From the NCBI GenBank assembly GCA_965197905.1, contig CBDAOB010000003.1, forward strand, positions 257,937 through 321,936: a stretch of DNA of 64,000 nucleotides. Direction: 5' to 3'. Positions 18,366 to 59,597 of this stretch are shown in pieces. Position numbers and translations under genes: made by a program. The DNA is from Candidatus Latescibacterota bacterium. GTDB lineage: Bacteria; Latescibacterota; UBA2968; UBA8231. Under the pieces are notes generated by a model, which saw only the letters and a program-made list of their open reading frames with translations, was not told the origin of the DNA and did not search any database. Position 1 is the first letter of the stretch, and every line of letters starts with the position of its first letter.

Positions 18366-18482
18366 AGTCTATTCGAGCTATAATCAAAAGGTGTGGAAAT
18401 ACACAGAAGGCGATCCTACCCTTCCTTTGTAATTAGACATTACACGCGCCGGGGCTGTCCCGGCAGGAAGAGGAGAATCGCC

Positions 18483-19004
18483 ATGCCACAACCTAAGCTG
18501 AGCACCGCGGAAATGTCCATGCCCACGTTCGAAACGTTGGAAGCGTGGACGCGGTCGCAGATTCAGTCTTTGATGCAGTCGGTTTTGGATGAAGAAGTGA
18601 CGCAGGTGCTGGGGCGGTCGCGCTACCAGCGTCAGGCCCCGTTGGACGCACCCGGCGGCTATCGAAATGGCTACGGGAAGCGGCGGCGACTGTCCTGTAC
18701 CTCGGGCACGATCGAGGTAAAACGTCCACGCGTGCGAGGTCTGGAAGAGCGCTTCGAGAGCGCCATTCTGCCGCTGTTTGCGCGGCGTACGAAGGAGGTG
18801 GGTCAGCTGTTGCCGGAACTGTATCTGCACGGTCTGTCCCAAGGCGACTTCGAGCTGGCGCTGCGCGGCCTGCTGGGAGCGGGAGCGCCGCTGTCGCCGT
18901 CCTCAATCGCGCGTTTGCGGGATAAGTGGATCGTCGAATACCACGCCTGGCGCAGCCGACGGCTGGATGACCGCGAGCTGGTGTACGCCTGGGCCGACGG
19001 GATC
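18483..19004 (+). CDS. IS256-family (Mutator-like) transposase, exon 1
   Basis: MPQPKLS...LVYAWADGI ends in the first DDE-region motif; RBS GGAAGAGGAG; interrupted by the intron at 19005. Confidence 0.75.
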
Positions 19005-21145
19005 GTGCGCCACGAGGCGCCAGAGAACCGGGTGGGATGCAAGGACCCACCAACGGGCTGTCGCAGCAGCCCGTTGAAGCTGGAGGCAGCCTGACCCTGG
19101 GAGCGCAGGGGAAGGTGGAAGCAGCCTCGACAACGACAGAGTGGAGTGGCACCTCCAGACACTCCACGTCTGGCAAGCAAGACGGAATGGTGTAACCCGA
19201 AGTGAACCAGTGATGGAACCCCCTTTAGCGGCCCGCCAACCCAAACCTGGTGGATAAGGGTTGGTACGCAACGCACGTGGTCGGATATATGACCGACTGC
19301 GACTCTGGGGAGGTGTGATACCCACCGAAGCAGAGGCCTTGGAGAATGCCTGCGGCGTACCCAAGGCGAAGTTGCAGGGGAAAAGCTGGGCACCTCCCCC
19401 GTCAAACGGTTCATGGTGAACGTGGGAACCGAGCCGAGTCCGACCGTTATCGGGGCAGCGCGCTGTCCGCTGTGGGGCTTGGCAAGGGACGGAGCCTCTG
19501 TAGTAGTCCGCGAGCGGGAAAGCCGCTTACATGGCGAAGGGAGGCAGCAAGTTGCGCAGTGGGGTACTGGAAAAACAGGAGGACGCCGGTGAATGCCAGC
19601 GCTTCGTGGCCCGAGGCAGAACAAGCCCGTAATCGAGTACTGGAAATCCAGACCAAACTGCACCGTTGGGCTGTAGAGGATCGAAGCAAGTGCTTCGACG
19701 ACCTGTTCAACCTGGTGTGTGACCCGGCGTTTTTGAGTGTAGCCTGGCGTCGGGTGCGCAGCAACAAGGGTGCTCGTTCGGCCGGAGTGGACGGACAAAC
19801 GGCCTACTCTGTGGAGACGGAACGCGGCGAGGAGGCCTTTCTCGCCGAGGTGCGGGTTGATCTGAAGACCCGCAGTTTCCGGCCTCTGCCCGTACGCGAG
19901 CGGTTGATTCCGAAACCTGGCACAACGAAGAAGCGCCGGCTCGGCATCCCAACCGCTCGGGACCGAGTGGTCCAAGCCGCACTCAAGCTGGTGCTCGAAC
20001 CGATCTTCGAAGCGGACTTCAAGCCGTGCTCCTACGGCTTCCGCCCGAATCGGCGGGCTCAGGACGCCATCGCCGAGATTCATCAATTCTGCTCCCGCTC
20101 TTATGAGTGGGTGGTGGAGGGCGATATCCGTGCTTGTTTCGATGAGATTGATCACGCAGCCCTCTTGGACCGCGTGCGTCGACGTATCGGTGATAAGCAT
20201 GTTCTGAGGCTTGTAAAAGCGTTCTGCAAGGCCGGTGTCCTCACGGAACAATCGGTGTTGCAAGAAAGCACTTCGGGCACTCCGCAAGGCGGTATTCTCT
20301 CACCGCTGGTGGCAAATATCGCCTTATCCGTCCTCGACGATTATTTCACTGAGGTCTGGAGAAAGGTGGGCGCTACCTCCAGTGCGCGACAAGCGCATCG
20401 GCGAAAGGGGCTACCGACTTGTCGGCTTGTCCGTTACGCTGACGATTTCGTGCTGCTGGTGGCGGGCACCGAAGCTGCAGCGTATGACCTGCGCGACCAA
20501 GCGGGGGTGACTCTCACCCCCATGGGTCTGCACCTGTCGGAGACGAAGACCGCCATCACGCACATCAGCCGTGGCTTCGATTTCCTGGGTTTTCGCATTC
20601 AGAAGCGACGGAAACCGGGCCCGGTTGGCGCACGCATCTATACGTGGCCAAGAAAGGAATCTCTGGCCCGGTTGAAGAGCACGGTGCGCGCAGTCACGAG
20701 AACGGGTCGGCAGAGGCCGTTGAAGAGCCTTCTGCGCCAACTCAATCCGGTGTTGCGGGGGTGGGCCAACTACTTTCAGTACGGGGTGTCGAAGGCCACT
20801 TTCAACTACGTGCGGGGCTTCACTTGGCGCCGCGTAGTGCATTGGCTGCGCCGCAAGCACCCGCGCTTTAATTGGAGGAAGCTGAAACGCCGCTACCTGC
20901 CAGGATGGTGGCCCACCGAGGACGGGATTGCTCTTTACAACGTCGGCGAAGTAGCAGTGACTCGTTACCGCTATCGATCGGCGCGGATCCCTTCTCCCTG
21001 GCCTGCGACAACCGGATGAGACTCTGCGGTCACACGGCACCTTGTGGAGAGCCGGATGCGTGGTAACGCGCACGTCCGGTTCGGAGGGCGGGCCGGAGAA
21101 ACCCACATCACGCGTGTGGCGCAGGGCGCTCCGGTCCGACCCTAC
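19005..21145 (+). mobile_element. group II intron, RT-encoding
   Basis: 5' GUGCGCC immediately after the exon codon ATC; domain V GAGCCGGAUGCGUGGUAACGCGCACGUCCGGUUC at 21049-21082; 3' end ...CGACCCUAC; removal restores the in-frame ...WADGI|YVKAGLEK... of IS256 transposases. Confidence 0.85.
19583..21019 (+). CDS. group II intron reverse transcriptase/maturase (no endonuclease domain)
   Basis: RT motifs 0-7 including FRPNRRAQDA, QGGILSPLVANI and YADDFVLL; X/maturase domain RGWANYFQYGV; GTG start after AGGAGG; the ORF-track start at 19346 is probably too far upstream. Confidence 0.8.
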   Translation, partial: TPVNASASWPEAEQARNRVLEIQTKLHRWAVEDRSKCFDDLFNLVCDPAFLSVAWRRVRSNKGARSAGVDGQTAYSVETERGEEAFLAEVRVDLKTRSFRPLPVRERLIPKPGTTKKRRLGIPTARDRVVQAALKLVLEPIFEADFKPCSYGFRPNRRAQDAIAEIHQFCSRSYEWVVEGDIRACFDEIDHAALLDRVRRRIGDKHVLRLVKAFCKAGVLTEQSVLQESTSGTPQGGILSPLVANIALSVLDDYFTEVWRKVGATSSARQAHRRKGLPTCRLVRYADDFVLLVAGTEAAAYDLRDQAGVTLTPMGLHLSETKTAITHISRGFDFLGFRIQKRRKPGPVGARIYTWPRKESLARLKSTVRAVTRTGRQRPLKSLLRQLNPVLRGWANYFQYGVSKATFNYVRGFTWRRVVHWLRRKHPRFNWRKLKRRYLPGWWPTEDGIALYNVGEVAVTRYRYRSARIPSPWPATTG

Positions 21146-21862
21146 TACGTCAAAGCCGGGCTCGAGAAAGAAAAGGCCGCTCTCCTGGTGGTCATCGGCG
21201 CCATGAGCGATGGGCGCAAGGAAGTCTTGACGATTGTCCCAGGCTATCGCGAATCGAAGGAGTCGTGGACGAGCGTGCTGCGCGATTTGCGTGACCGCGG
21301 ACTGAGCGCGGCGAAGTTGTTGGTGGCGGATGGGCACCTGGGTATTTGGGCCGCCCTGGCGCAGGTCTGGCCGGAGACGGCGGAACAGCGGTGCTGGAAT
21401 CACCGCCTCCTGAACGTGTTGGATAAGCTGCCTAAACGCGTGCAGGCCGAAGCGCGGCAACTGCTGACACAGATCCCCTACGCGCCGACCCGTCAAGACG
21501 CGACCAAACGCCGCGATCAATTCGCCAAACGATTCCACCGCGAATGCCCAGACGCCGTAGATATCCTCGAGCGCGATTGGGACCGTATGGTGGCATTCTA
21601 CGACTTTCCCGAGGCCCACTGGCAACACCTGCGCACTACCAACGTCGTTGAAAGTCCCTTCGCTTCGGTACGGCTGCGAACCAATGCGGCCAAGCGCTAC
21701 AAGAAGGTGGCCAATGCCACCGCCCTCATATGGCGGGTACTGATGGTGGCCGAGAAACGATTTCGCCGACTCCGTGCACCGCATCTTATGGCTGACGTGT
21801 ACGCCAATGTGCGCTACGAAAATGGATCACACATCGCGCAAAGGAAGAAGATTGCCGCCTGA
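21146..21862 (+). CDS. IS256-family transposase, exon 2
   Basis: YVKAGLEKEKAALLVVIGAMSDGRKEVL...VADGHLG...CWNHRLLN...TTNVVESPF are conserved IS256 Tnp motifs. Confidence 0.75.
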   Translation, partial: YVKAGLEKEKAALLVVIGAMSDGRKEVLTIVPGYRESKESWTSVLRDLRDRGLSAAKLLVADGHLGIWAALAQVWPETAEQRCWNHRLLNVLDKLPKRVQAEARQLLTQIPYAPTRQDATKRRDQFAKRFHRECPDAVDILERDWDRMVAFYDFPEAHWQHLRTTNVVESPFASVRLRTNAAKRYKKVANATALIWRVLMVAEKRFRRLRAPHLMADVYANVRYENGSHIAQRKKIAA

Positions 21863-36122: not shown

Positions 36123-37115
36123 TTAATAGTCTACACCACGCACGCCGTCGACCACTCTGCCCAGCGCATCCAGTCGGGAATGGACGTCCGGTGAAAGACG
36201 GCCCAAAGCTGCGCAGCCGACGTTTTCCTCCAGTTGTTCCACTGTCGCTGCACCAGGGATCACGGTGGCTACATCCTTGTCTGCCAGCAGAAATCGCATT
36301 GCAAGCGCGGCCAGACTGATCCCGATCTCTTGATGGATCGCATAGAGCTCTGCAAAGCGAGCCCGAAGGTCGTCGTCCATCCAATCGGGAGGATGTTCTA
36401 TCCACTCTTCACGAGGAAAGGCCAGTTCCCCCTGCTGCAGAGGCGCCCCGAGTACCACACCTTGGCCCAATTCCTTGGCCAGTGGCAGAAGGTACTGTCT
36501 CGCGTTGCGCCAGATCAGGCTGTACTGAAATCCGACCAGCACGACTTCCACGGGGAGAGTGATCTCCTGCAGTATCTTTGCCAGGAGGTGAGCATTGTTG
36601 CCGGAAATGCCGAGATGCTTCGCCATTCCCTTCTCCTTGGCCCACAACAGGAACTGCGTCACCGGCGCGTTACCGTAGTCGTAAACGCCGTCTGCGCAGA
36701 TGTGCCGTGTCTTGCGCGGCGTGACCTCGTCCTGCCAATATACCCTCCAATCGGCCTCGTGGATGTAGAGGATGTCCACGCAATCGCGCCGCAGAGCCCG
36801 CAGCGTCTGCTCGAACTGCACCTTGAAGGCGTTCAACTCGCGGTACGGACCGGTCCGCCAGTCCCATCGTCCGCACTTCGTCCCCAATATATATGGTTCC
36901 TTTCGCCCCTGGAGAGCTTCCCCTAGGACCTCCTGAGAATTTCCGTAGAGGGGAGCGGTGTCGAAATAGTTCACTCCCAGTCCCAAAGCGCGATGGACAA
37001 CACGAGTAGCTTCATCGCGCGCCGTCGCTCCCTCACTGATGAAGGCCCCGCCCAAGCCAACCTCGGTAACCTCCAGACCTGTCTTTCCCAACGGCCGTTT
37101 GCTGATTCCGGTCAT
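36123..37115 (-). CDS. aldo/keto reductase
   Basis: LGKTGLEVTEVGLG...FDTAPLYGNSQEVLGEAL...YILGTKCG. Confidence 0.8.
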   Translation of the reverse strand: MTGISKRPLGKTGLEVTEVGLGGAFISEGATARDEATRVVHRALGLGVNYFDTAPLYGNSQEVLGEALQGRKEPYILGTKCGRWDWRTGPYRELNAFKVQFEQTLRALRRDCVDILYIHEADWRVYWQDEVTPRKTRHICADGVYDYGNAPVTQFLLWAKEKGMAKHLGISGNNAHLLAKILQEITLPVEVVLVGFQYSLIWRNARQYLLPLAKELGQGVVLGAPLQQGELAFPREEWIEHPPDWMDDDLRARFAELYAIHQEIGISLAALAMRFLLADKDVATVIPGAATVEQLEENVGCAALGRLSPDVHSRLDALGRVVDGVRGVDY

Positions 37116-37127
37116 ACGCCAAGTCTC

Positions 37128-37245
37128 CTTCGAATGAAATTCCGGCTTGCCCTTGCACACGCCAAAGGCGTCTTACTGCCCGAAGGGCCAAGGCGCCATC
37201 GGCGCCGTAGCGTAAACTGCGCTGTTAACTGACGTTTCCACAACC
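37128..37245. repeat. attC-like element, family B
   Basis: ...cccgaagggccaaggcgccatcggcgccgtagcgtaaactgcgctGTTAACtgacg; 13 bp upstream of the AKR start. Confidence 0.55.
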
Positions 37246-41702: not shown

Positions 41703-42008
41703 CTATTTAGTTGCAGAGCGCGGTCGGACTTCTCGACTTAGGCGTTCTGCAAGCGCATCCTCCGCTTGATCGAGCTCATAGTCCATTTGAAGACCAAGCC
41801 AGAACTGGGGTGACATGTCGAAGTAACGGGCTAAACGCAATGCCGTATCGGCCGTAACACCTCTCTTGCCCAAGGCAATCTCGTTGATTCGGCGCGGTGG
41901 TACGCCAAGGGCCAGTGCCAACCGGTTCTGACTGAGTTCCATTGGCTTGAGAAATTCTTCCAACAGGACTTCGCCGGGATGTAATGGGGTTATTTTCTTC
42001 TTTGCCAC
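41703..42008 (-). CDS. higA: HigA-family antitoxin (XRE HTH)
   Basis: HPGEVLLEEFLKPMELSQNRLALALGVPPRRINEIALGKRGVTADTALRLARYF; directly downstream of higB. Confidence 0.75.
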   Translation of the reverse strand: MAKKKITPLHPGEVLLEEFLKPMELSQNRLALALGVPPRRINEIALGKRGVTADTALRLARYFDMSPQFWLGLQMDYELDQAEDALAERLSREVRPRSATK

Positions 42009-42017
42009 GGTAGCCTC

Positions 42018-42299
42018 CTAGTGATAATCTGCAATTTTCACGTTGTAGGCGTCACCGCCTTGCCAATCAAAGCAGATGCGCCATTGGTCATTGATTCGAA
42101 TACTGTATTGTCCAATTCTGCCGCCCCGCAGCTTCTTTAAGCGATTTGCCGGCGGCACCCTCGGATCGTTCAATGTCATCGACCGGTTTAGCATACGGAG
42201 TTTGCGAAACGCAACGGATTGAATGGCGCGCGGCAATTTTCGTGAGCCTTGGCGCGAAAAGATGCGTTCAGTCTCCCGATCGCGAAATGACCTGATCAT
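42018..42299 (-). CDS. higB: HigB-family toxin (RelE/ParE superfamily)
   Basis: MIRSFRDRETERIF...QYSIRINDQWRICFDWQGGDAYNVKIADYH; 10-bp gap to higA. Confidence 0.7.
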   Translation of the reverse strand: MIRSFRDRETERIFSRQGSRKLPRAIQSVAFRKLRMLNRSMTLNDPRVPPANRLKKLRGGRIGQYSIRINDQWRICFDWQGGDAYNVKIADYH

Positions 42300-42394
42300 A
42301 CCACAATTATATAACGCACTACGTTTAACGCAACCCGTTATGACGATGACATGCCTTAAAGTTGCGAACCAGTGTTTTCGCAATGACCTATGAC

Positions 42395-42470
42395 GTTATG
42401 CCGGTTTGCGAACCTGGACGAGTAACAGAAGGCAGGTTGCCCGAAGGGTCGAGGCGCCGCAGGCGCCGAT
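42395..42470. repeat. attC-like element, family B, left part (interrupted by the ORF-less intron; right part at 43221-43262)
   Basis: ccggtttgcgaacctggacgagtaacagaaggcaggttgcccgaagggtcgaggcgccgcaggcgccgatg | intron | cgtaaactgcgctGTTACCcgatg. Confidence 0.55.
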
Positions 42471-43220
42471 GGTAGGGTCGAGAACTGGCGCGCCAGCCTT
42501 AGGGTTCGGTGGGTTCCCCATGGCTTTCGCCATAGCCCTCAGTCCGACTCCCATCGCTACGTTTCCAGTTCCCGCCGCCTCAAACCGGACGTGCGGATCT
42601 CCCGCATCCGGCTTCCCGACGAACGTCACATCCAGGCACACGCCACAAGGACTTCACCTGGTAGTCAAGCTGCTTCCGATGCATACTAGTCTTACTGCTG
42701 GAGGCAATAGGCTCACGCCACTCTCCAACCCTCTGCACTTCCGCAGCATGTCCGAAGTCAGGCCCCTTCCCTCCACCGGAGTTACCCGGCTTCCTCGGTA
42801 CTACGCGCCTGTCCGCCACCTCATCCAGCCCAGTCTGGCCCTCGCGGGTTACCGGTTGGAGGCACTCGCTGCTTCCACCGGATGAGGCTTCCCGTGTTGC
42901 GCCACATCTCCTCTTACACACATGCTGTCGCCACTACCCCGGCGGAACAGCTGGGTGCGCTTGTCGCTCGACTTCCCCAGCTGCAGCGGCCTTCCCTGGT
43001 TTACGGGCAGGTCGGCTTCCGCATTACACTTTTCGAGGCCTGCTCAGCGTTTACTCACGTTACGGCCTGTGTGCTCGCCAAGTCGCCCAAGGCGACCCTC
43101 TACACCGGAGGCTTCAGCGGCTTCGTCGCCTCCACCACTGCTCCGATTGCTACCGGCTGGAGCGACCCTTGCCGGGTGGGATTCGCACCCACTGAAGATG
43201 TGCGCCTTAGCACGGCGCAC
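42471..43220 (-). mobile_element. ORF-less group II intron (about 750 nt) inserted into an attC-like repeat element
   Basis: on the minus strand: 5' GUGCGCC (rc of 43214-43220), domain V GAAGCCGGAUGCGGGAGAUCCGCACGUCCGGUUUG (rc of about 42591-42635), 3' end ...CGACCCUAC, the same terminus as the IS-borne intron. No ORF over 115 aa. Splits a family-B repeat into 42395-42470 and 43221-43262. Confidence 0.75.
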
Positions 43221-43269
43221 CGTAAACTGCGCTGTTACCCGATGTGTCAAACCACCCGACGCACCGGCA

Positions 43270-43857
43270 CTACTTCGTTCGCTCTCGAGGAACGACACGA
43301 ATTGCATCATCTAGCCGGCGCGACAATGGTGATGATTTGGCACCAGACCTCGGATCAATAACCGCGATCCTGTAGTCAGCTGTGGTATCCGGGTAGAGAT
43401 TCTTCCTTCCAGAGTCATTGTGCTGCATCGTTCTTGGCAACGATTCAAGAACCCTAAGAAATACCTCTCGTTCCGCCCAAGTTCGCGAGTAACACTTTCC
43501 GACCTCAGGCGTCCATCCCCGCTGCATGAGCTCATGCTCGTGCCAGGCTGCATCGAAATCGTCCCAGACAAAGGCATTGGGAATCCTGGAAGCCCGCTGT
43601 CGCAACATATCGGTTAGTAGCCATTCCCAGTCTGGGAGAGAGCGGTCGGTTAGATATTGGCCGTTGAATCGAGCTAAATGACTAGCGACAAGCTCGTAAT
43701 GATCGAGTGGCCATGAAGAGTTTGGTTTCTCGGCCACATCCTCGAGCCACAACCAATATCCGTTCTCTCGTTCCTCGGCGTGGTAACACTGGGGCGCCGA
43801 AAAGCAAGAATGGCGACTCACAGTTAGCACCGTAGGCAGTAACGGATGTGCATCCAA
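43270..43857 (-). CDS. phosphotransferase (APH/CotS/HSK-II-like) family protein, possibly N-terminally truncated
   Basis: Brenner-like motif QHNDSGRKNL; only 195 aa; begins at the edge of the duplicated segment. Confidence 0.35.
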   Translation of the reverse strand: MDAHPLLPTVLTVSRHSCFSAPQCYHAEERENGYWLWLEDVAEKPNSSWPLDHYELVASHLARFNGQYLTDRSLPDWEWLLTDMLRQRASRIPNAFVWDDFDAAWHEHELMQRGWTPEVGKCYSRTWAEREVFLRVLESLPRTMQHNDSGRKNLYPDTTADYRIAVIDPRSGAKSSPLSRRLDDAIRVVPRERTK

Positions 43858-43944
43858 GTGATTGCAAGTGGTTCCTAATAAAAAGGCGTTTTATAATTCC
43901 TGCTATACTTCGCAAGAGGGTCGGGCAGATTTGAGCCAGGGACC

Positions 43945-44382
43945 TTGAACGCTCGGGCGATTCACATTAGCTTAAGCTACGGAATCGAGAATACGGACCG
44001 AGGCACTGCCGTGCATCTTAAGCAAGAGTGGAACGCCTGCCTGGAAGCGCTCAAGCGGGGAGAATTGACCCCCGAACGATTGCAAGCCGTGATCGACTCC
44101 GTGCCCGACGACAGTCCTGAGAAACGACAGAGTCTGCTCTTCGTTCAGACGTCTCACAACGGAGTCAATTCCAAACTGGTTGGGTACCTCCTGGTGATCA
44201 ACGGCGAAGCCCAACCGGGTTCTCGCAACCGCGAGGAATGGCCCTATCGCACCGTCGCCGATGCGATCCAGGACGGCTGGCGGATCATTTCCTTCCCCAA
44301 CACGGCTCTGCTGATGGATCCTGACAGCACCTACGGAATCGGCCCCGAGTTCATTCTCGAGAAGATGGAGCCAATAAAATGA
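43945..44382 (+). CDS. small conserved hypothetical protein (copy A), translationally coupled to the downstream dioxygenase
   Basis: ATG at 43945 lies outside the duplicated segment; conserved GTG at 44002 (equivalent to 47839 in copy B) is an alternative start; stop overlaps the next start (ATGA). Confidence 0.45.
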   Translation: MNARAIHISLSYGIENTDRGTAVHLKQEWNACLEALKRGELTPERLQAVIDSVPDDSPEKRQSLLFVQTSHNGVNSKLVGYLLVINGEAQPGSRNREEWPYRTVADAIQDGWRIISFPNTALLMDPDSTYGIGPEFILEKMEPIK

Positions 44383-45330
44383 AGCAGTGGACGCACGATT
44401 GCCCGCCCACACTCACCGACACACAGGTCATCGATTTCTGTCAGAAGGGATTTGTGTTGCTCGAGGCGGTCGTCCCAGACGAGATCAATCGCCGCGTGTT
44501 TGAGTTTCTCGATGAGCATCCGGAAATGGAGCCTTCCTGCATTTTAAGCGAAGAATGGTTCGTGAAGCAGGTGCTCTGCAATCCCGAGGCCGCCGGGGCC
44601 GTTCGCTCGCTGCTGGGCAGTGACTTTCACCTTCCCGTGCTGATGAGCAACCACCGCGAGCGAGGACCCTACTGGGAACCGACGGGCTGGCACATCGACG
44701 GAAACTATAAACACGGATATGAATTGCCGTCCCTGCAGGTGTTCTATTATCCGCAGGACACCACGCCGGAGATGGGGCCCACGGAACTGGTGCCCGGATC
44801 TCATCAGCTCCGTATGAAGCGCCGGTACATGTCCAACTTCGAAAACATCGCTACCGCCTTCAGCACGACCGCTCCCGCCGGCTCGATCTTCATCACCATC
44901 TACCACATCTGGCATCGCCGAGGCTTCGCTACCAGCACCCGACTGCGCAACATGCTGAAGTATGTCTACTGGCGCACGACCGAGCCCACGCGGGACTGGA
45001 TCATCGAGCCAGATTTCGACTTTGCCACCGCCAACTATGGTTCGCAAGAATATGGAGAGAAGATGAAGGTCGCCATCGACACCGCGGAGATGTTCTACTG
45101 GCTATGCGGAATGCATGACCGGTTTCAGGTCATCGGCGGGCAGAGTTGGCCTAGTTTCAACCCCAGCCGCATCGACGTGCCCTATGGATTTCCCGGTCCG
45201 GTCGCCCCGGTCTCCGAAGCGCCGGGCAAACGACGGCCGGTCCAGGATGGCGCGGCTGAATCCTGACCGCAAATGGCTACCACTGAATGCAATCGTCTGC
45301 GAGTTGTCGCTTCGTAAGTCGCGCTGACTC
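43968..45330 (+). repeat. segmental duplication, copy A (about 1.36 kb)
   Basis: near-identical to 47805-49165 with a few SNPs; a 2-bp indel near the 3' end changes the C-terminus of the PhyH ORF. Confidence 0.85.
44379..45266 (+). CDS. PhyH-like Fe(II)/2OG dioxygenase (copy A)
   Basis: GFVLLEAVVPDEI...WHIDG...VPGSHQL...IWHRRG. Confidence 0.65.
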   Translation: MKQWTHDCPPTLTDTQVIDFCQKGFVLLEAVVPDEINRRVFEFLDEHPEMEPSCILSEEWFVKQVLCNPEAAGAVRSLLGSDFHLPVLMSNHRERGPYWEPTGWHIDGNYKHGYELPSLQVFYYPQDTTPEMGPTELVPGSHQLRMKRRYMSNFENIATAFSTTAPAGSIFITIYHIWHRRGFATSTRLRNMLKYVYWRTTEPTRDWIIEPDFDFATANYGSQEYGEKMKVAIDTAEMFYWLCGMHDRFQVIGGQSWPSFNPSRIDVPYGFPGPVAPVSEAPGKRRPVQDGAAES

Positions 45331-45809
45331 TTATTCTGGCGCCATCATGCCTCGGTGCGCTGCTGGAGGTGAAGCCCAACCGGGTCTCGCCTGAATTAGA
45401 AAACATTTTTCTCAACCGTCAAAAAACAAAGAGCATTACTTGACCACGTCCTCTTCAGTATAGGGGATTGCTATTGATGCAATAGCCAGTATATCCCTCC
45501 ACTCAGGATGGCCGCTATGGGCAAAGTCAGTGCCCACGACAACAGTATTTCCAACAAAACTCTAATGTTGGCTTTCTTTGTAATTAGACCCATACCAAAG
45601 AGGGAACCAACAGATACATGCGTGGTTGATACGGGCATACCCAGTCGGAGAGAATCGATGCGTATACGGATAGGCCATTGCCGTTAGATGCGTAGGACGT
45701 AAGGGTAAGACGGGTGTCCGGCCCTCACCCGGTTTGACGGTCCGGCTGTCAAACCACCCTCTCCCGCTCGCGGGAGAGGGTCTAGCTAAGTGATGAATGC
45801 GAAGGGAGT

Positions 45810-47096
45810 GTGATGAAGCCGAACATTATTCTTCTGATGACGGACCAGCAGAGGTGGGACAGTCTCGGGTGCAACGGGAATCGATTTGTGTCGACGCCCA
45901 ACGTGGACAGGCTGGCCGAAGGAGGGGCGAACTGCGCGAACAGTTATACGCCTTGGCCGGTCTGTACGCCTGCACGGGCAACGATGTGGACCGGGGTTTA
46001 CCCCCACCAGCACCAGGTGATCTACAATGCGTACAAGATGGACAACGTTCTGAAGGAGACCTCGCACGAGCAGCGGACCGTGTTCGAGCCTCTGAGGGAG
46101 AGTGGATATACGACGGCGTACTTCGGGAAGTGGCACCTCGGCGAGACCGACCCGGGGATGTTTGATGTGTGGAGCGGTTTCAACAGCTCGGGCGGTCACT
46201 GGGTGGATGATGTTCGCGATGGTGTCTACAAGCCCGATCAGCAGACGGATCAGATGATCGCGTTTATCAAGGCGCAGACAGATGGCGACAAGCCGTTCTT
46301 TGCGGTGAACGGATACTATCCTCCTCACGATCCGTATACCGCGCCTGAGCGATTCTACGAACCGTATCGTGGTCAGGGTGTTCCGTATGCCGGATACTAC
46401 GCGGCAGTCAGCGCGATCGACGACAACGTGGGTCGATTGGTGGCGGCGATTGAAGAAGCTGGCCTGACCGAGGATACGATCATCGTCTACTACTCGGATC
46501 ACGGCGATCACTTCAGCTACCGGGGGAGCGACCACAAGTTTACGTGCCACGACGATTCGATCAAGGTACCGATGGTGATCAGCTGGCCTGGAACGATCAC
46601 TGCAGGTCAAGTTGTTGAGGAATTCGTTGGTCTTCAGGATCTGATGCCGACGATTCTCGAGTGGGCGGGTCTGGACATTCCCGGCTATCTGCACGGTACC
46701 AGCATCGTGCCGCTGCTCGGAGAGGAGTCTGTTCCGTGGCGAGACTCGCATTACACGGAGAATGTGATTCGCGGTCCCTTTATCGAACAGCGATCGATAC
46801 GAACGAACGAGTGGAAGCTGATTCTAACGCGTTCCGTAAGGTTTCTCCAGGGCTACACGGCTTTGAACGAACTCTACGACCTGGTGAATGATCCGGAGGA
46901 AGAGCTCAACATCTACAGGACACCGCGCGAGGATACACACAACAGATTCCGAAATACACCGCCTCAGACCGAGGTGATCGAAGGACTCGTTCACGAACTG
47001 AGGAAGCAGGCTGTCGAGATAAACGATCAGTTGGGGATCGATATGGCCGATTTTACGTTGGTCGAGATCGGAAAGCGCAAGGCGACTGGTTCGTAG
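45810..47096 (+). CDS. sulfatase
   Basis: NIILLMTDQQRWD...PVCTPARATMWTGVYPH (canonical C-x-P-x-R)...YYSDHGDH; preceded by two strong hairpins at about 45715-45775. Confidence 0.85.
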   Translation: MMKPNIILLMTDQQRWDSLGCNGNRFVSTPNVDRLAEGGANCANSYTPWPVCTPARATMWTGVYPHQHQVIYNAYKMDNVLKETSHEQRTVFEPLRESGYTTAYFGKWHLGETDPGMFDVWSGFNSSGGHWVDDVRDGVYKPDQQTDQMIAFIKAQTDGDKPFFAVNGYYPPHDPYTAPERFYEPYRGQGVPYAGYYAAVSAIDDNVGRLVAAIEEAGLTEDTIIVYYSDHGDHFSYRGSDHKFTCHDDSIKVPMVISWPGTITAGQVVEEFVGLQDLMPTILEWAGLDIPGYLHGTSIVPLLGEESVPWRDSHYTENVIRGPFIEQRSIRTNEWKLILTRSVRFLQGYTALNELYDLVNDPEEELNIYRTPREDTHNRFRNTPPQTEVIEGLVHELRKQAVEINDQLGIDMADFTLVEIGKRKATGS

Positions 47097-47473: not shown

Positions 47474-47838
47474 TGTATAGGAATTATAAAGGGGCTTTTG
47501 GACATCGAAAAACAGTCTGAAACGCTAAATAAATCGGCCAATATTCCGGAGGTAGGTGTTATAGTCGCGCAGCAGCTCCTTGGCAATTCCTCTCGCGATC
47601 TTCATCCGAATGCCCGTGACCCTAGCGTCTATATCCCGTTCAGGAACCGAAATCCATCCCGCACGGCGCCGCCTCGACGCGTTTCCTGAGTCGCCGCCCG
47701 CCTAAGGCCAAATTAGTCGCCCGCCACAAACTCGCCTACCTTGCCGCTATTAGCGATAACGCGTTTTGTTTATCTTATACTTATTATCTTATACTTAACG
47801 TAACCTACGGAATCGAGAATACGGACCGAGGCACTGCC

Positions 47839-48210
47839 GTGCATCTTAAGCAAGAGTGGAACGCCTGCCTGGAAGCGCTCAAGCGGGGAGAATTGACCCC
47901 CGAACGATTGCAAGCCGTGATCGACTCCGTGCCCGACGACAGTCCTGAGAAACGACAGAGTCTGCTCTACGTTCAGACGTCTCACAACGGAGTCAATTCC
48001 AAACTGGTTGGGTACCTCCTGGTGATCAACGGCGAAGCCCAACCGGGTTCTCGCAACCGCGAGGAATGGCCCTATCGCACCGTCGCCGATGCGATCCAGG
48101 ACGGCTGGCGGATCATTTCCTTCCCCAACACGGCTCTGCTGATGGATCCTGACAACACCTACGGAATCGGCCCCGAGTTCATTCTCGAGAAGATGGAGCC
48201 AATAAAATGA
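47839..48210 (+). CDS. small conserved hypothetical protein (copy B)
   Basis: GTG start preceded by GAGG; 123 aa; ATGA overlap with the next gene. Confidence 0.45.
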   Translation: MHLKQEWNACLEALKRGELTPERLQAVIDSVPDDSPEKRQSLLYVQTSHNGVNSKLVGYLLVINGEAQPGSRNREEWPYRTVADAIQDGWRIISFPNTALLMDPDNTYGIGPEFILEKMEPIK

Positions 48211-49157
48211 AGCAGTGGACGCACGATTGCCCGCCCACACTCACCGACACACAGGTCATCGATTTCTGTCAGAAGGGATTTGTGTTGCTCGAGGCGGTCG
48301 TCCCAGACGAGATCAATCGCCGCGTGTTTGAGTTTCTCGATGAGCATCCGGAAATGGAGCCTTCCTGCATTTTAAGCGAAGAATGGTTCGTGAAGCAGGT
48401 GCTCTGCAATCCCGAGGCCGCCGGGGCCGTTCGCTCGCTGCTGGGCAGTGACTTTCACCTTCCCGTGCTGATGAGCAACCACCGCGAGCGAGGACCCTAC
48501 TGGGAACCGACGGGCTGGCACATCGACGGAAACTATAAACACGGATATGAATTGCCGTCCCTGCAGGTGTTCTATTATCCGCAGGACACCACGCCGGAGA
48601 TGGGGCCCACGGAACTGGTGCCCGGATCTCATCAGCTCCGTATGAAGCGCCGGTACATGTCCAACTTCGAAAACATCGCTACCGCCTTCAGCACGACCGC
48701 TCCCGCCGGCTCGATCTTCATCACCATCTACCACATCTGGCATCGCCGAGGCTTCGCTACCAGCACCCGACTGCGCAACATGCTGAAGTATGTCTACTGG
48801 CGCACGACCGAGCCCACGCGGGACTGGATCATCGAGCCAGATTTCGACTTTGCCACCGCCAACTATGGTTCGCAAGAATATGGAGAGAAGATGAAGGTCG
48901 CCATCGACACCGCGGAGATGTTCTACTGGCTATGCGGAATGCATGACCGGTTTCAGGTCATCGGCGGGCAGAGTTGGCCTAGTTTCAACCCCAGCCGCAT
49001 CGACGCGCCCCATGGATTTCCCGGTCCGGTCGCCCCCCCGTCTCCGAAGCGCCGGGCAAACGACGGCCGGTCCAGGGTGGCACGGCCGAATCCTGACCGC
49101 AAACGGCCACCACTGAATACAATCGTCTGCGAGTTGTCGCTTCGTACGTCGCGCTGA
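48207..49157 (+). CDS. PhyH-like Fe(II)/2OG dioxygenase (copy B)
   Basis: identical to copy A up to the C-terminal indel. Confidence 0.65.
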   Translation: MKQWTHDCPPTLTDTQVIDFCQKGFVLLEAVVPDEINRRVFEFLDEHPEMEPSCILSEEWFVKQVLCNPEAAGAVRSLLGSDFHLPVLMSNHRERGPYWEPTGWHIDGNYKHGYELPSLQVFYYPQDTTPEMGPTELVPGSHQLRMKRRYMSNFENIATAFSTTAPAGSIFITIYHIWHRRGFATSTRLRNMLKYVYWRTTEPTRDWIIEPDFDFATANYGSQEYGEKMKVAIDTAEMFYWLCGMHDRFQVIGGQSWPSFNPSRIDAPHGFPGPVAPPSPKRRANDGRSRVARPNPDRKRPPLNTIVCELSLRTSR

Positions 49158-49408
49158 CTCTTAACTAAGTAGCTTCGCCTTTTTGCCCCAATTCCGTGTA
49201 GGTCACCCTCGATGAGGGAGCCGTTCCTATGGGGAGTTTCTCCTTGCAATCGAAGATCCAGAGAGAATTCCCACAAGTGCGCAGACAACCCGTCAAAACT
49301 AGCTCTAACTATCCCTAGTAGCTCTGCGCTTTCAAAGGCGGCGATCACCTCCTGAATGATGTTGCGGCCTGTGGAGGTGGGCACGGGATATAGATAGGTC
49401 CATTCTCT

Positions 49409-56109: not shown

Positions 56110-56217
56110 GAGCTATAATCAAAAGGTGTGGAAATACACAGAAGGCGATCCTACCCTTCCTTTGTAATTAGACATTACACGCGCCGGGGCTGTCCCGGCA
56201 GGAAGAGGAGAATCGCC

Positions 56218-56739
56218 ATGCCACAACCTAAGCTGAGCACCGCGGAAATGTCCATGCCCACGTTCGAAACGTTGGAAGCGTGGACGCGGTCGCAGATTCA
56301 GTCTTTGATGCAGTCGGTTTTGGATGAAGAAGTGACGCAGGTGCTGGGGCGGTCGCGCTACCAGCGTCAGGCCCCGTTGGACGCACCCGGCGGCTATCGA
56401 AATGGCTACGGGAAGCGGCGGCGACTGTCCTGTACCTCGGGCACGATCGAGGTAAAACGTCCACGCGTGCGAGGTCTGGAAGAGCGCTTCGAGAGCGCCA
56501 TTCTGCCGCTGTTTGCGCGGCGTACGAAGGAGGTGGGTCAGCTGTTGCCGGAACTGTATCTGCACGGTCTGTCCCAAGGCGACTTCGAGCTGGCGCTGCG
56601 CGGCCTGCTGGGAGCGGGAGCGCCGCTGTCGCCGTCCTCAATCGCGCGTTTGCGGGATAAGTGGATCGTCGAATACCACGCCTGGCGCAGCCGACGGCTG
56701 GATGACCGCGAGCTGGTGTACGCCTGGGCCGACGGGATC
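56218..56739 (+). CDS. IS256-family transposase, exon 1 (copy 2)
   Basis: identical to 18483-19004. Confidence 0.75.
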
Positions 56740-58880
56740 GTGCGCCACGAGGCGCCAGAGAACCGGGTGGGATGCAAGGACCCACCAACGGGCTGTCGCA
56801 GCAGCCCGTTGAAGCTGGAGGCAGCCTGACCCTGGGAGCGCAGGGGAAGGTGGAAGCAGCCTCGACAACGACAGAGTGGAGTGGCACCTCCAGACACTCC
56901 ACGTCTGGCAAGCAAGACGGAATGGTGTAACCCGAAGTGAACCAGTGATGGAACCCCCTTTAGCGGCCCGCCAACCCAAACCTGGTGGATAAGGGTTGGT
57001 ACGCAACGCACGTGGTCGGATATATGACCGACTGCGACTCTGGGGAGGTGTGATACCCACCGAAGCAGAGGCCTTGGAGAATGCCTGCGGCGTACCCAAG
57101 GCGAAGTTGCAGGGGAAAAGCTGGGCACCTCCCCCGTCAAACGGTTCATGGTGAACGTGGGAACCGAGCCGAGTCCGACCGTTATCGGGGCAGCGCGCTG
57201 TCCGCTGTGGGGCTTGGCAAGGGACGGAGCCTCTGTAGTAGTCCGCGAGCGGGAAAGCCGCTTACATGGCGAAGGGAGGCAGCAAGTTGCGCAGTGGGGT
57301 ACTGGAAAAACAGGAGGACGCCGGTGAATGCCAGCGCTTCGTGGCCCGAGGCAGAACAAGCCCGTAATCGAGTACTGGAAATCCAGACCAAACTGCACCG
57401 TTGGGCTGTAGAGGATCGAAGCAAGTGCTTCGACGACCTGTTCAACCTGGTGTGTGACCCGGCGTTTTTGAGTGTAGCCTGGCGTCGGGTGCGCAGCAAC
57501 AAGGGTGCTCGTTCGGCCGGAGTGGACGGACAAACGGCCTACTCTGTGGAGACGGAACGCGGCGAGGAGGCCTTTCTCGCCGAGGTGCGGGTTGATCTGA
57601 AGACCCGCAGTTTCCGGCCTCTGCCCGTACGCGAGCGGTTGATTCCGAAACCTGGCACAACGAAGAAGCGCCGGCTCGGCATCCCAACCGCTCGGGACCG
57701 AGTGGTCCAAGCCGCACTCAAGCTGGTGCTCGAACCGATCTTCGAAGCGGACTTCAAGCCGTGCTCCTACGGCTTCCGCCCGAATCGGCGGGCTCAGGAC
57801 GCCATCGCCGAGATTCATCAATTCTGCTCCCGCTCTTATGAGTGGGTGGTGGAGGGCGATATCCGTGCTTGTTTCGATGAGATTGATCACGCAGCCCTCT
57901 TGGACCGCGTGCGTCGACGTATCGGTGATAAGCATGTTCTGAGGCTTGTAAAAGCGTTCTGCAAGGCCGGTGTCCTCACGGAACAATCGGTGTTGCAAGA
58001 AAGCACTTCGGGCACTCCGCAAGGCGGTATTCTCTCACCGCTGGTGGCAAATATCGCCTTATCCGTCCTCGACGATTATTTCACTGAGGTCTGGAGAAAG
58101 GTGGGCGCTACCTCCAGTGCGCGACAAGCGCATCGGCGAAAGGGGCTACCGACTTGTCGGCTTGTCCGTTACGCTGACGATTTCGTGCTGCTGGTGGCGG
58201 GCACCGAAGCTGCAGCGTATGACCTGCGCGACCAAGCGGGGGTGACTCTCACCCCCATGGGTCTGCACCTGTCGGAGACGAAGACCGCCATCACGCACAT
58301 CAGCCGTGGCTTCGATTTCCTGGGTTTTCGCATTCAGAAGCGACGGAAACCGGGCCCGGTTGGCGCACGCATCTATACGTGGCCAAGAAAGGAATCTCTG
58401 GCCCGGTTGAAGAGCACGGTGCGCGCAGTCACGAGAACGGGTCGGCAGAGGCCGTTGAAGAGCCTTCTGCGCCAACTCAATCCGGTGTTGCGGGGGTGGG
58501 CCAACTACTTTCAGTACGGGGTGTCGAAGGCCACTTTCAACTACGTGCGGGGCTTCACTTGGCGCCGCGTAGTGCATTGGCTGCGCCGCAAGCACCCGCG
58601 CTTTAATTGGAGGAAGCTGAAACGCCGCTACCTGCCAGGATGGTGGCCCACCGAGGACGGGATTGCTCTTTACAACGTCGGCGAAGTAGCAGTGACTCGT
58701 TACCGCTATCGATCGGCGCGGATCCCTTCTCCCTGGCCTGCGACAACCGGATGAGACTCTGCGGTCACACGGCACCTTGTGGAGAGCCGGATGCGTGGTA
58801 ACGCGCACGTCCGGTTCGGAGGGCGGGCCGGAGAAACCCACATCACGCGTGTGGCGCAGGGCGCTCCGGTCCGACCCTAC
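56740..58880 (+). mobile_element. group II intron, RT-encoding (copy 2)
   Basis: identical to 19005-21145. Confidence 0.85.
57318..58754 (+). CDS. group II intron RT/maturase (copy 2)
   Basis: identical to 19583-21019. Confidence 0.8.
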   Translation, partial: TPVNASASWPEAEQARNRVLEIQTKLHRWAVEDRSKCFDDLFNLVCDPAFLSVAWRRVRSNKGARSAGVDGQTAYSVETERGEEAFLAEVRVDLKTRSFRPLPVRERLIPKPGTTKKRRLGIPTARDRVVQAALKLVLEPIFEADFKPCSYGFRPNRRAQDAIAEIHQFCSRSYEWVVEGDIRACFDEIDHAALLDRVRRRIGDKHVLRLVKAFCKAGVLTEQSVLQESTSGTPQGGILSPLVANIALSVLDDYFTEVWRKVGATSSARQAHRRKGLPTCRLVRYADDFVLLVAGTEAAAYDLRDQAGVTLTPMGLHLSETKTAITHISRGFDFLGFRIQKRRKPGPVGARIYTWPRKESLARLKSTVRAVTRTGRQRPLKSLLRQLNPVLRGWANYFQYGVSKATFNYVRGFTWRRVVHWLRRKHPRFNWRKLKRRYLPGWWPTEDGIALYNVGEVAVTRYRYRSARIPSPWPATTG

Positions 58881-59597
58881 TACGTCAAAGCCGGGCTCGA
58901 GAAAGAAAAGGCCGCTCTCCTGGTGGTCATCGGCGCCATGAGCGATGGGCGCAAGGAAGTCTTGACGATTGTCCCAGGCTATCGCGAATCGAAGGAGTCG
59001 TGGACGAGCGTGCTGCGCGATTTGCGTGACCGCGGACTGAGCGCGGCGAAGTTGTTGGTGGCGGATGGGCACCTGGGTATTTGGGCCGCCCTGGCGCAGG
59101 TCTGGCCGGAGACGGCGGAACAGCGGTGCTGGAATCACCGCCTCCTGAACGTGTTGGATAAGCTGCCTAAACGCGTGCAGGCCGAAGCGCGGCAACTGCT
59201 GACACAGATCCCCTACGCGCCGACCCGTCAAGACGCGACCAAACGCCGCGATCAATTCGCCAAACGATTCCACCGCGAATGCCCAGACGCCGTAGATATC
59301 CTCGAGCGCGATTGGGACCGTATGGTGGCATTCTACGACTTTCCCGAGGCCCACTGGCAACACCTGCGCACTACCAACGTCGTTGAAAGTCCCTTCGCTT
59401 CGGTACGGCTGCGAACCAATGCGGCCAAGCGCTACAAGAAGGTGGCCAATGCCACCGCCCTCATATGGCGGGTACTGATGGTGGCCGAGAAACGATTTCG
59501 CCGACTCCGTGCACCGCATCTTATGGCTGACGTGTACGCCAATGTGCGCTACGAAAATGGATCACACATCGCGCAAAGGAAGAAGATTGCCGCCTGA
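58881..59597 (+). CDS. IS256-family transposase, exon 2 (copy 2)
   Basis: identical to 21146-21862. Confidence 0.75.
   Translation, partial: YVKAGLEKEKAALLVVIGAMSDGRKEVLTIVPGYRESKESWTSVLRDLRDRGLSAAKLLVADGHLGIWAALAQVWPETAEQRCWNHRLLNVLDKLPKRVQAEARQLLTQIPYAPTRQDATKRRDQFAKRFHRECPDAVDILERDWDRMVAFYDFPEAHWQHLRTTNVVESPFASVRLRTNAAKRYKKVANATALIWRVLMVAEKRFRRLRAPHLMADVYANVRYENGSHIAQRKKIAA

Follow-up and report, generated by a model that had tools for sequence, protein, structure and literature searches.

A non-autonomous group II intron, probably of class F type, within an attC-like element of a bacterial cassette array

A 64,000-nt stretch of contig CBDAOB010000003.1 from a Candidatus Latescibacterota bacterium (the window, numbered here from its first letter) carries an array of repeated elements, termed family B, that resemble the attC sites of integrons, and one of these elements is interrupted by a group II intron without an open reading frame (ORF). 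The locus raises the question of what kind of intron came to lie there, how it recognised its target, and which protein could have moved it. An earlier note on this DNA had proposed a class C (IIC) intron mobilised in trans by a reverse transcriptase (RT) encoded elsewhere in the window. Our analysis points to a different answer, which we consider very likely: the element is a non-autonomous, ORF-deleted intron of class F type that lies in the sense orientation inside the attC top strand, having arrived by retrohoming and lost its ORF later.

Intron boundaries and the interrupted element

The family-B elements each lie 3' of a minus-strand ORF, and the functions of these ORFs are unrelated from one to the next (Band 7, PhyH, ankyrin, aldo-keto reductase, ADH, phosphorylase, HigB/HigA, SDR and 5'-3' exonuclease). 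Intact copies have R''-type and R'-type ends, CATTTAAC...GTTAAATG, that fit the pattern RYYYAAC / GTTRRRY, and on the minus strand their layout is R'' (CATTTAAC), L'' (..GTTTACG / GTTTGCCG), a 4-nt spacer (CTAC, CTGC or TTGC), the central hairpins, L' (TTCGCAAACC..) and R' (GTTAAAT). When folded as single strands the intact copies have their R boxes paired in an outer stem, a second, mismatched stem formed by L, and three small hairpins in the centre, with fold z-scores of -3.5 and -3.7 in two copies and weaker values in two others. Judged from its sequence, the family-B array has the anatomy of an integron cassette array, in which the minus strand carries the attC top strand as well as the cassette ORFs and the intron, so that the intron is in the sense orientation.

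In five intact family-B copies the interval from GTTTACG/GTTTGCCG to the central hairpin, of GGCGCC type, is exactly 4 nt, and in the split copy, when aligned with these, GTTTACG is followed by 749 nt and then by CATCGGCGCC, the full layout being ..GGGTAACAGCGCAGTTTACG, 749 nt, CATCGGCGCC... Because the comparison of intact and split copies fixes both junctions, the insertion can be placed at exactly 43220-42472 on the minus strand, running from GTGCGCC at 43220 to CTCGACCCTAC at 42472. The claim of the earlier note that the intron splits a family-B element precisely was thus borne out to the base by the flank alignment that it had suggested, and the GUGCGCC start that it gave is correct, while its length of 750 nt is to be amended to 749. 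The termini, GUGCG at 43220 and CUAC at 42472, agree with the group II consensus of 5' GUGYG and 3' AY. Three relatives (L001, L002 and L119) have ...CTCGACTCTAC as their 3' end at the homologous position, and the 3' termini of homologous introns, ...CUCGACUCUAC, correspond in position to 42472.

Two Rfam models recognise the intron. RF02003 (group-II-D1D4-4), a curated model for domains I to IV of one type of group II intron, covers a segment of domain I far above its gathering score (E = 7e-23; Table 1), and RF00029 matches domains V and VI at 39.2 bits, slightly below its gathering score of 40 (local E = 6e-6). The 3' boundary at 42504 drawn from Rfam was rejected, since the intact attC copies and the homologues place the end at 42472; both the 32-nt error in the 3' splice site and the score just under the gathering value are explained by an unusually long domain VI, which measures ~105 nt here and about 105-115 nt in all relatives and contains an internal hairpin capped by GAAA. 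From the family alignment and the consensus fold, the bulged branch-point A is at 42478, position -7 from the 3' end.

The remainder of the ribozyme also looks intact, as far as can be judged from the sequence. An RNAalifold consensus of 13 ORF-less members of the family (this intron and 12 others) contains 194 pairs, 59 of them with compensatory changes, and so supports by covariation the six-domain fold that the earlier note had asked to see built. At 112 columns conserved in at least 95% of 98 relatives this intron has no deviations, where other sequences range from 0 to 59, and the basal pair of domain V has changed from G-C to A-U, a compensatory substitution relative to the family. Taken with the RF02003 match, this upholds the identification of the element as an ORF-less group II intron, including the textbook domain V, whose quoted letters are found at 42616-42582 and which alignment to RF00029 locates at 42614-42582, a hairpin with the catalytic triad AGC and a 2-nt bulge. 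The plus-strand ORFs that overlie the intron had been dismissed as spurious, and we agree: a Pfam search of all ORFs over the intron gave no match, and comparable antisense open stretches are not conserved in homologues. A promoter and terminator scan of 42250-43950 found nothing.

Intron class and recognition of the target

Domains I-III of the intron (nt 1-467) match 102 plasmid records at 68-75% identity, and wherever these records are annotated, the match is followed directly by an ltrA gene of about 430-465 codons. A conserved 26-nt pattern of the family was found at 116 loci in species-representative genomes, mostly metagenome-assembled genomes (MAGs) of Acidobacteriota, Planctomycetaceae and Proteobacteria. 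The proteins encoded by the relatives consist of RVT_1 and GIIM domains, with no endonuclease (En) domain in Pfam; the protein of L119 (P0001) has 441 aa and the LtrA protein of L001 has 429 aa, and the two are 58% identical.

The ribozyme shares 68-82% identity across domains I-III with introns in which the En-less protein has been typed as class F (g2-g5). The key homologue (H11) is the intron at 393425 of the Paraburkholderia fungorum plasmid pBIL, which is 71.5% identical over nt 1-467 and is listed as canonical, with an intron-encoded protein of type F(g2-g5), in a supplementary table of Miura et al. 2022 (PMC8919778). Class F introns are described as structurally typical of IIB and as encoding proteins without En (Toro and Martinez-Abarca 2013, PMC3552965), and the long domain VI is a further likeness. 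It therefore appears that the intron is of IIB-like class F (g2-g5) type, within the ribozyme family of Rfam D1D4-4, an assignment that agrees with proteins having RVT_1 and GIIM only, with the AGC triad and with exon recognition of the IIB type. We found no literature that maps the Rfam D1D4 numbers to intron classes. What sets this copy apart from other class F members is the missing ORF and an EBS1/EBS2 specificity, matching the attC arm, that is common only to L119 and L120, the two relatives described below.

The exon-recognition elements themselves could be located by covariation within the family. Exon-binding site 1 (EBS1), CGUAAAC, forms seven Watson-Crick pairs with the last seven exon bases, GUUUACG (intron-binding site 1, IBS1; 43227-43221), and among 98 distinct relatives the EBS1 loop covaries with exon positions -1 to -6, all six pair types being seen. 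Complementarity between EBS and IBS at the junction, on which the earlier note had made its interpretation depend, is thus present over 7 bp. EBS2 in the family is formed by the 4-5 nt right after the conserved CUCGAAA(A) and covaries with exon positions -10 to -15, the pairs in relatives (intron/exon) including GGAC/GTCC, GGTC/GACC, TGCC/GGCA, GACGT/ACGTC and CGGGT/ACCCG. Two early candidates for EBS2, GCUGUU (nt 270-275) and GCGC, were dropped when family covariation put this site at nt 192-195. Among 31 relatives, 84% have an EBS3 that is Watson-Crick complementary to the base that opens the 3' exon, three types of pair being represented, and in the present intron a G stands opposite a C (IBS3, 42471). 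The intron thus has the three elements of IIB-type exon recognition, namely EBS1, EBS2 and a domain I EBS3 that pairs with the first base of the 3' exon, and the motifs that these three target are confined to the R''-L'' arm plus the first base beyond it.

Table 1. Positions of the intron, its parts, its exons and related features in the window
Feature	Coordinates	Strand	Evidence or detail
ORF-less group II intron, 749 nt, GUGCGCC...CUCGACCCUAC	42472..43220	-	sequence, Rfam matches, intact attC copies, homologues, consensus fold
5' exon, R''-L'' arm of the split attC (..GGGTAACAGCGCAGTTTACG)	43221..43246	-	alignment with intact copies, complementarity
3' exon, remaining attC: CATC, central hairpins, L' TTCGCAAACC, R' region	42384..42471	-	intact copies, reconstituted element
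Domain I segment, RF02003 group-II-D1D4-4	43055..43194	-	106.8 bits, gathering score 49
EBS2 GUGU, intron nt 192-195, directly after conserved CUCGAAAA	43026..43029	-	family covariation
EBS1 CGUAAAC, intron nt 216-222, loop of hairpin 43011-42995	42999..43005	-	7 Watson-Crick pairs with IBS1
EBS3 G287, GGGGUAGUGGCG coordination-loop region	42934	-	pairs with first 3'-exon base
Domain IVa (D4a) hairpin, kept after ORF loss	42700..42726	-	conserved in L119 and all ORF-less relatives
RT/maturase remnants: start ATGCATCGGAAGCAGC (42684-42669), last codons and stop GCCTGGATGTGA (42637-42626)	42626..42684	-	L001/L119 alignment
Domain V with AGC triad	42582..42614	-	RF00029 alignment
Long domain VI, internal GAAA-capped hairpin	42472..42576	-	family alignment, covariation
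Empty potential homing site in another family-B element: identical 16-nt AACAGCGCAGTTTACG, then C	37203..37238	-	sequence, alignment
Unrelated full-length group II intron with RT/maturase ORF, in IS256-family transposase gene	19005..21145	+	RF00029, RVT_1 and GIIM

Relatives, history and rival explanations

A search pattern built on the EBS1 hairpin had no match in 185,579 species genomes, and its only match in metagenome contigs was L119, from groundwater. L119, the closest relative, is a full-length intron of 1978 nt that encodes a 441-aa RT/maturase, is 81.5% identical to the ORF-less intron over nt 1-521 and has an identical EBS1. Its 5' exon ends in ..GTTCAACAGCAGGTTTACG and its 3' exon begins CATCG, and ~180 nt downstream of the intron we find TTCGCAAACGGCGGAGCCGTTAGGC, an L'-R' arm with a canonical GTTAGGC core (TTCGCAAAC...GTTAGGC). 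A second full-length relative, L120, is on a Logan contig; its 5' exon ends in CTAACAGCGGTTTTACG, and the protein it encodes is 94% identical to that of L119. Both introns lie directly behind an equivalent R''-L'' arm (AACAG..TTTACG). Since the three flanks differ outside the IBS positions, they represent different attC variants and not one inherited locus, and the recurrence of these relatives at the same position in different variants therefore favours site-specific homing over accident.

The sample is three only; what it suggests is that a small sub-lineage within class F homes to the top strand of attC. Such a sub-lineage would read the R''-L'' arm of that strand (AACAG..TTTACG, then C) through EBS1, EBS2 and EBS3, from which sense insertion would follow. 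A wider proposal is that the sub-lineage specialised on attC independently of the IIC introns known from attC sites (IIC-attC introns), and that the present copy is an ORF-less, splicing-only derivative that locks two cassettes together, one of them higBA; this we put forward tentatively, leaning slightly against it. The idea that the whole D1D4-4 family targets attC-like hairpins was discarded, as the joined exons of ~25 other members have no consistent inverted repeat or strong fold.

The history of the ORF can be read by comparison with L119. Intron nt 1-521 align with nt 1-513 of L119 and nt ~580-749 with its nt ~1786-1978, and from the gap between these two blocks it follows that ~1.27 kb of domain IV is gone. 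Domain IV now measures ~130 nt, in which only the start and stop remnants of the RT/maturase ORF are left; the D4a hairpin, presumed from the analogy of other group II introns to be the protein-binding site, has been kept.

Loss of the ORF is a recurrent feature of the family: 14 of the 38 complete members from species genomes are ORF-less (L006, L019, L024, L037, L038, L039, L049, L051, L072, L092, L093, L104, L110 and L116; 722-740 nt, mostly in Acidobacteriota MAGs). In these 14, which have several different EBS1 specificities, the start codon is mutated (ATG to ACG), domain IV closes immediately beyond it, and D4a is retained. Because the deletion endpoints of the present intron differ from theirs, its ORF was lost independently. 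ORF-less bacterial group II introns are known and are considered rare (PMC4424553); within the D1D4-4 family they are far commoner than that status in reviews implies, which suggests active spread in trans.

The history that we propose would then run as follows. The intron, or its full-length parent, would have arrived by retrohoming, its RNA being reverse-spliced into DNA and then copied by an En-less RT/maturase, with the target specified by pairing of EBS1 (CGUAAAC) with GUUUACG, of EBS2 (ancestrally CUGU, now GUGU) with ACAG, and of EBS3 (G) with C. About 1.27 kb of domain IV would have been deleted later, leaving the D4a hairpin and an otherwise intact ribozyme, so that movement, and probably efficient splicing, would need a cognate class F protein in trans. 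The intron would be transcribed together with the upstream cassette, and splicing from such read-through RNA would restore the attC sequence. At the level of DNA, the arms of the attC are 749 bp further apart, which should impair integrase-mediated recombination at the split site, and the upstream cassette and the downstream higBA cassette would then behave as one unit.

In favour of a class C intron that recognises the attC hairpin, the reading of the earlier note, are the position of the intron in an attC-like palindromic element and the fact that the classic integron-associated introns are of the IIC-attC type (S.ma.I2; Leon and Roy, PMC3001079). The likeness is that of a group II lineage found specifically inside integron attC sites, separating the attC from, or inside, a cassette. 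IIC-attC introns have a CGC triad in domain V (PMC7923331), an EBS1 of 3-4 bp and no EBS2, recognise a hairpin, encode their own RT, and enter the bottom strand of attC at TTGT/T within R'' (PMC3001079, PMC7923331), antisense to the cassette genes. The present intron has the triad AGC, a 7-bp EBS1 together with EBS2 and EBS3, no ORF, a ribozyme family typed F(g2-g5), and an insertion in sense on the attC top strand, where it separates L'' from the central loops; it is not placed downstream of a stem-loop but inside the element, after its 5' arm, and the other members of its family that were examined are not beside hairpins. We therefore regard a class C intron as extremely improbable. The earlier note had also found the sense orientation odd, but an intron outside class IIC that finds its target through base pairing would be expected to show it. 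A related proposal, that splicing and mobilisation are provided in trans by a resident RT, draws on the two identical introns that lie in IS256-family transposase genes (Table 1; the second copy at 56740-58880) and encode RTs at 19583-21019 and 57318-58754. These are two intact RT/maturase genes on the same replicon, bacterial introns without an ORF are usually accompanied by others that have one (PMC4424553), and both intron types end ...CGACCCUAC. The common 3' terminus remarked on previously is indeed there, the ends reading CCGACCCTAC, but amounts to no more than the generic 3' strand of domain VI. By BLAST within the window the intron RNAs share nothing beyond 36 nt of domain V, on which ground the possibility that the ORF-less intron is a deletion derivative of the resident one was rejected, and the resident RT is 34% identical to the L001 protein and 35% to that of L119, compared with 58% within the family. 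Moreover, relatives of the resident intron are found on plasmids of Actinobacteria (Streptomyces, Rhodococcus and Mycobacterium), documented helpers are closely related introns (PMC4424553), and an identical target in the array (37238-37203) remains empty. Trans-mobilisation by the resident RT is accordingly unlikely, and we would assign it little probability.

Several observations weigh against a homing-derived class F-type intron in an attC site. EBS2 (GUGU) makes only 3 of 4 pairs with its candidate IBS2, ACAG (43235-43232, exon -15 to -12), where the CUGU of L119 makes 4 of 4, and the spacing of this pairing exceeds that in L119 by 1 nt; compared with the family consensus, domain VI lacks one clean pair at its base; the 64-kb window contains no gene for a cognate protein of class F; and the perfect-looking site at 37238-37203 is unoccupied, so that this copy may be immobile or a relic. 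The class F label goes back to one published table row for a ribozyme homologue of 71.5% identity, and the attC call to the R''/R' motifs, the position after cassette ORFs and the folding. No integron integrase was found among ~30 ORFs of the window scanned for domains, and the array is therefore, within the window, a cluster of attC sites without an integrase (CALIN). The absent cognate protein, the mismatch in EBS2, the weakened domain VI base and the uncolonised empty site are also what would be seen if the intron were an inert fossil, inserted once and possibly ectopically, which lost its ORF, neither splices nor moves, and lies in an attC only incidentally; that no identical copy was found in the collections searched fits as well. 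Against such a relic stand the 0 deviations at 112 conserved columns and the compensatory change in domain V, the retention of D4a, and the two independent full-length relatives at the same attC position in different attC variants. We consider the fossil explanation unlikely, though considerably less so than either of the other two, and retain as the best account an ORF-deleted class F-type intron that reached the attC by retrohoming.

Known systems and neighbouring features

Non-IIC introns, of the CL1 and class E types, have been reported once in cassette arrays (PMC7923331). These are the halophile IIB introns in integron arrays or CALINs (UHB.I2, H.ha.F1/F2; Sonbol and Siam 2021, PMC7923331), which are likewise array-associated. 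UHB.I2 shares the orientation of the cassettes and lies beside an attC, with toxin-antitoxin (TA) cassettes nearby, but it is a full-length CL1/IIB1 intron that lies immediately after an attC, and the H. halochloris copies are fragments of class E. The present intron differs in being of class F type, ORF-less but otherwise complete, and inside an attC, with two full-length relatives at the same attC position. It resembles other ORF-less bacterial introns (Simon et al. 2008; Mohr et al. 2010, for T. elongatus; PMC4424553) in having a complete ribozyme without a domain IV ORF and in its presumed dependence on a protein in trans; those introns share their genome with a close relative that has an ORF, whereas the 64-kb window holds only an RT of another lineage. 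In the literature searched we found no report of a class F-type intron inside an attC, or of a non-IIC lineage recurring at one attC position.

IIC-attC introns are so far the only group II lineage shown to target attC specifically, and roles in cassette formation and in altered cassette expression have been proposed for them. If our interpretation is correct, a second, unrelated lineage does so by base pairing with the opposite strand, so that attC would be a recurrent safe harbour for retroelements and the association of introns with attC would not be tied to hairpin recognition. The split attC would offer a natural test of integrase recombination between arms separated by a spliceable insert, and L119 is a candidate helper or donor for mobility assays.

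Other features of the array were noted in passing. The cassette directly downstream of the split attC (41703-42383) encodes a HigB-like toxin and a helix-turn-helix antitoxin in ORFs at 42018-42383 and 41703-42008; TA cassettes are also found beside the integron-associated introns of PMC7923331. The family-B element at 37128-37245 has a normal R''-L''-central part and a 3' half without the L'-R' arm, and runs directly into the next ORF, an aldo-keto reductase with its ATG near 37114; the element has the appearance of a fused cassette or of an attC that has been truncated. A ~1.4-kb segment is duplicated at 43967-45333 and 47795-49163 (99% and 94% identity in two stretches reported), each duplicate carrying a plus-strand ORF with a PhyH domain. 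A plus-strand sulfatase gene (45810-47096) lies between them, and the duplicates and the sulfatase are opposite in orientation to the surrounding cassettes. The IS256-family element that houses the resident intron is present as two identical ~3.5-kb copies in direct orientation (18375-21862 and 56110-59597), which bracket ~34 kb, including the whole cassette array, in the manner of a composite transposon; its transposase exons, 18393-19004 and 21146-21862, join in frame to give one open frame of 442 aa.

Two further groups within the D1D4-4 family have repeated targets of their own. At least 13 near-identical full-length copies of one member, with the EBS1 AAAGGG, lie after ..ACC(C/T)GACCCCTTT, most of them followed by TTCGGATAGGCTCT (L007, L020, L029, L031, L064, L070 and L076, from the Planctomycetaceae MAG CAWBOY01, together with L087, L090, L094, L099, L111 and L114), and are an intron burst into a repeated target. 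Acidobacterial members (L019, L024, L037, L047, L049, L033 and others) occupy two insertion points ~13 nt apart in one repeated motif, one point following ..TAGTTGGCGAAAAA and the other following the adjoining TCGCCATTGCAC, and the first of these points is in the loop of a small GGCGA/TCGCC hairpin.

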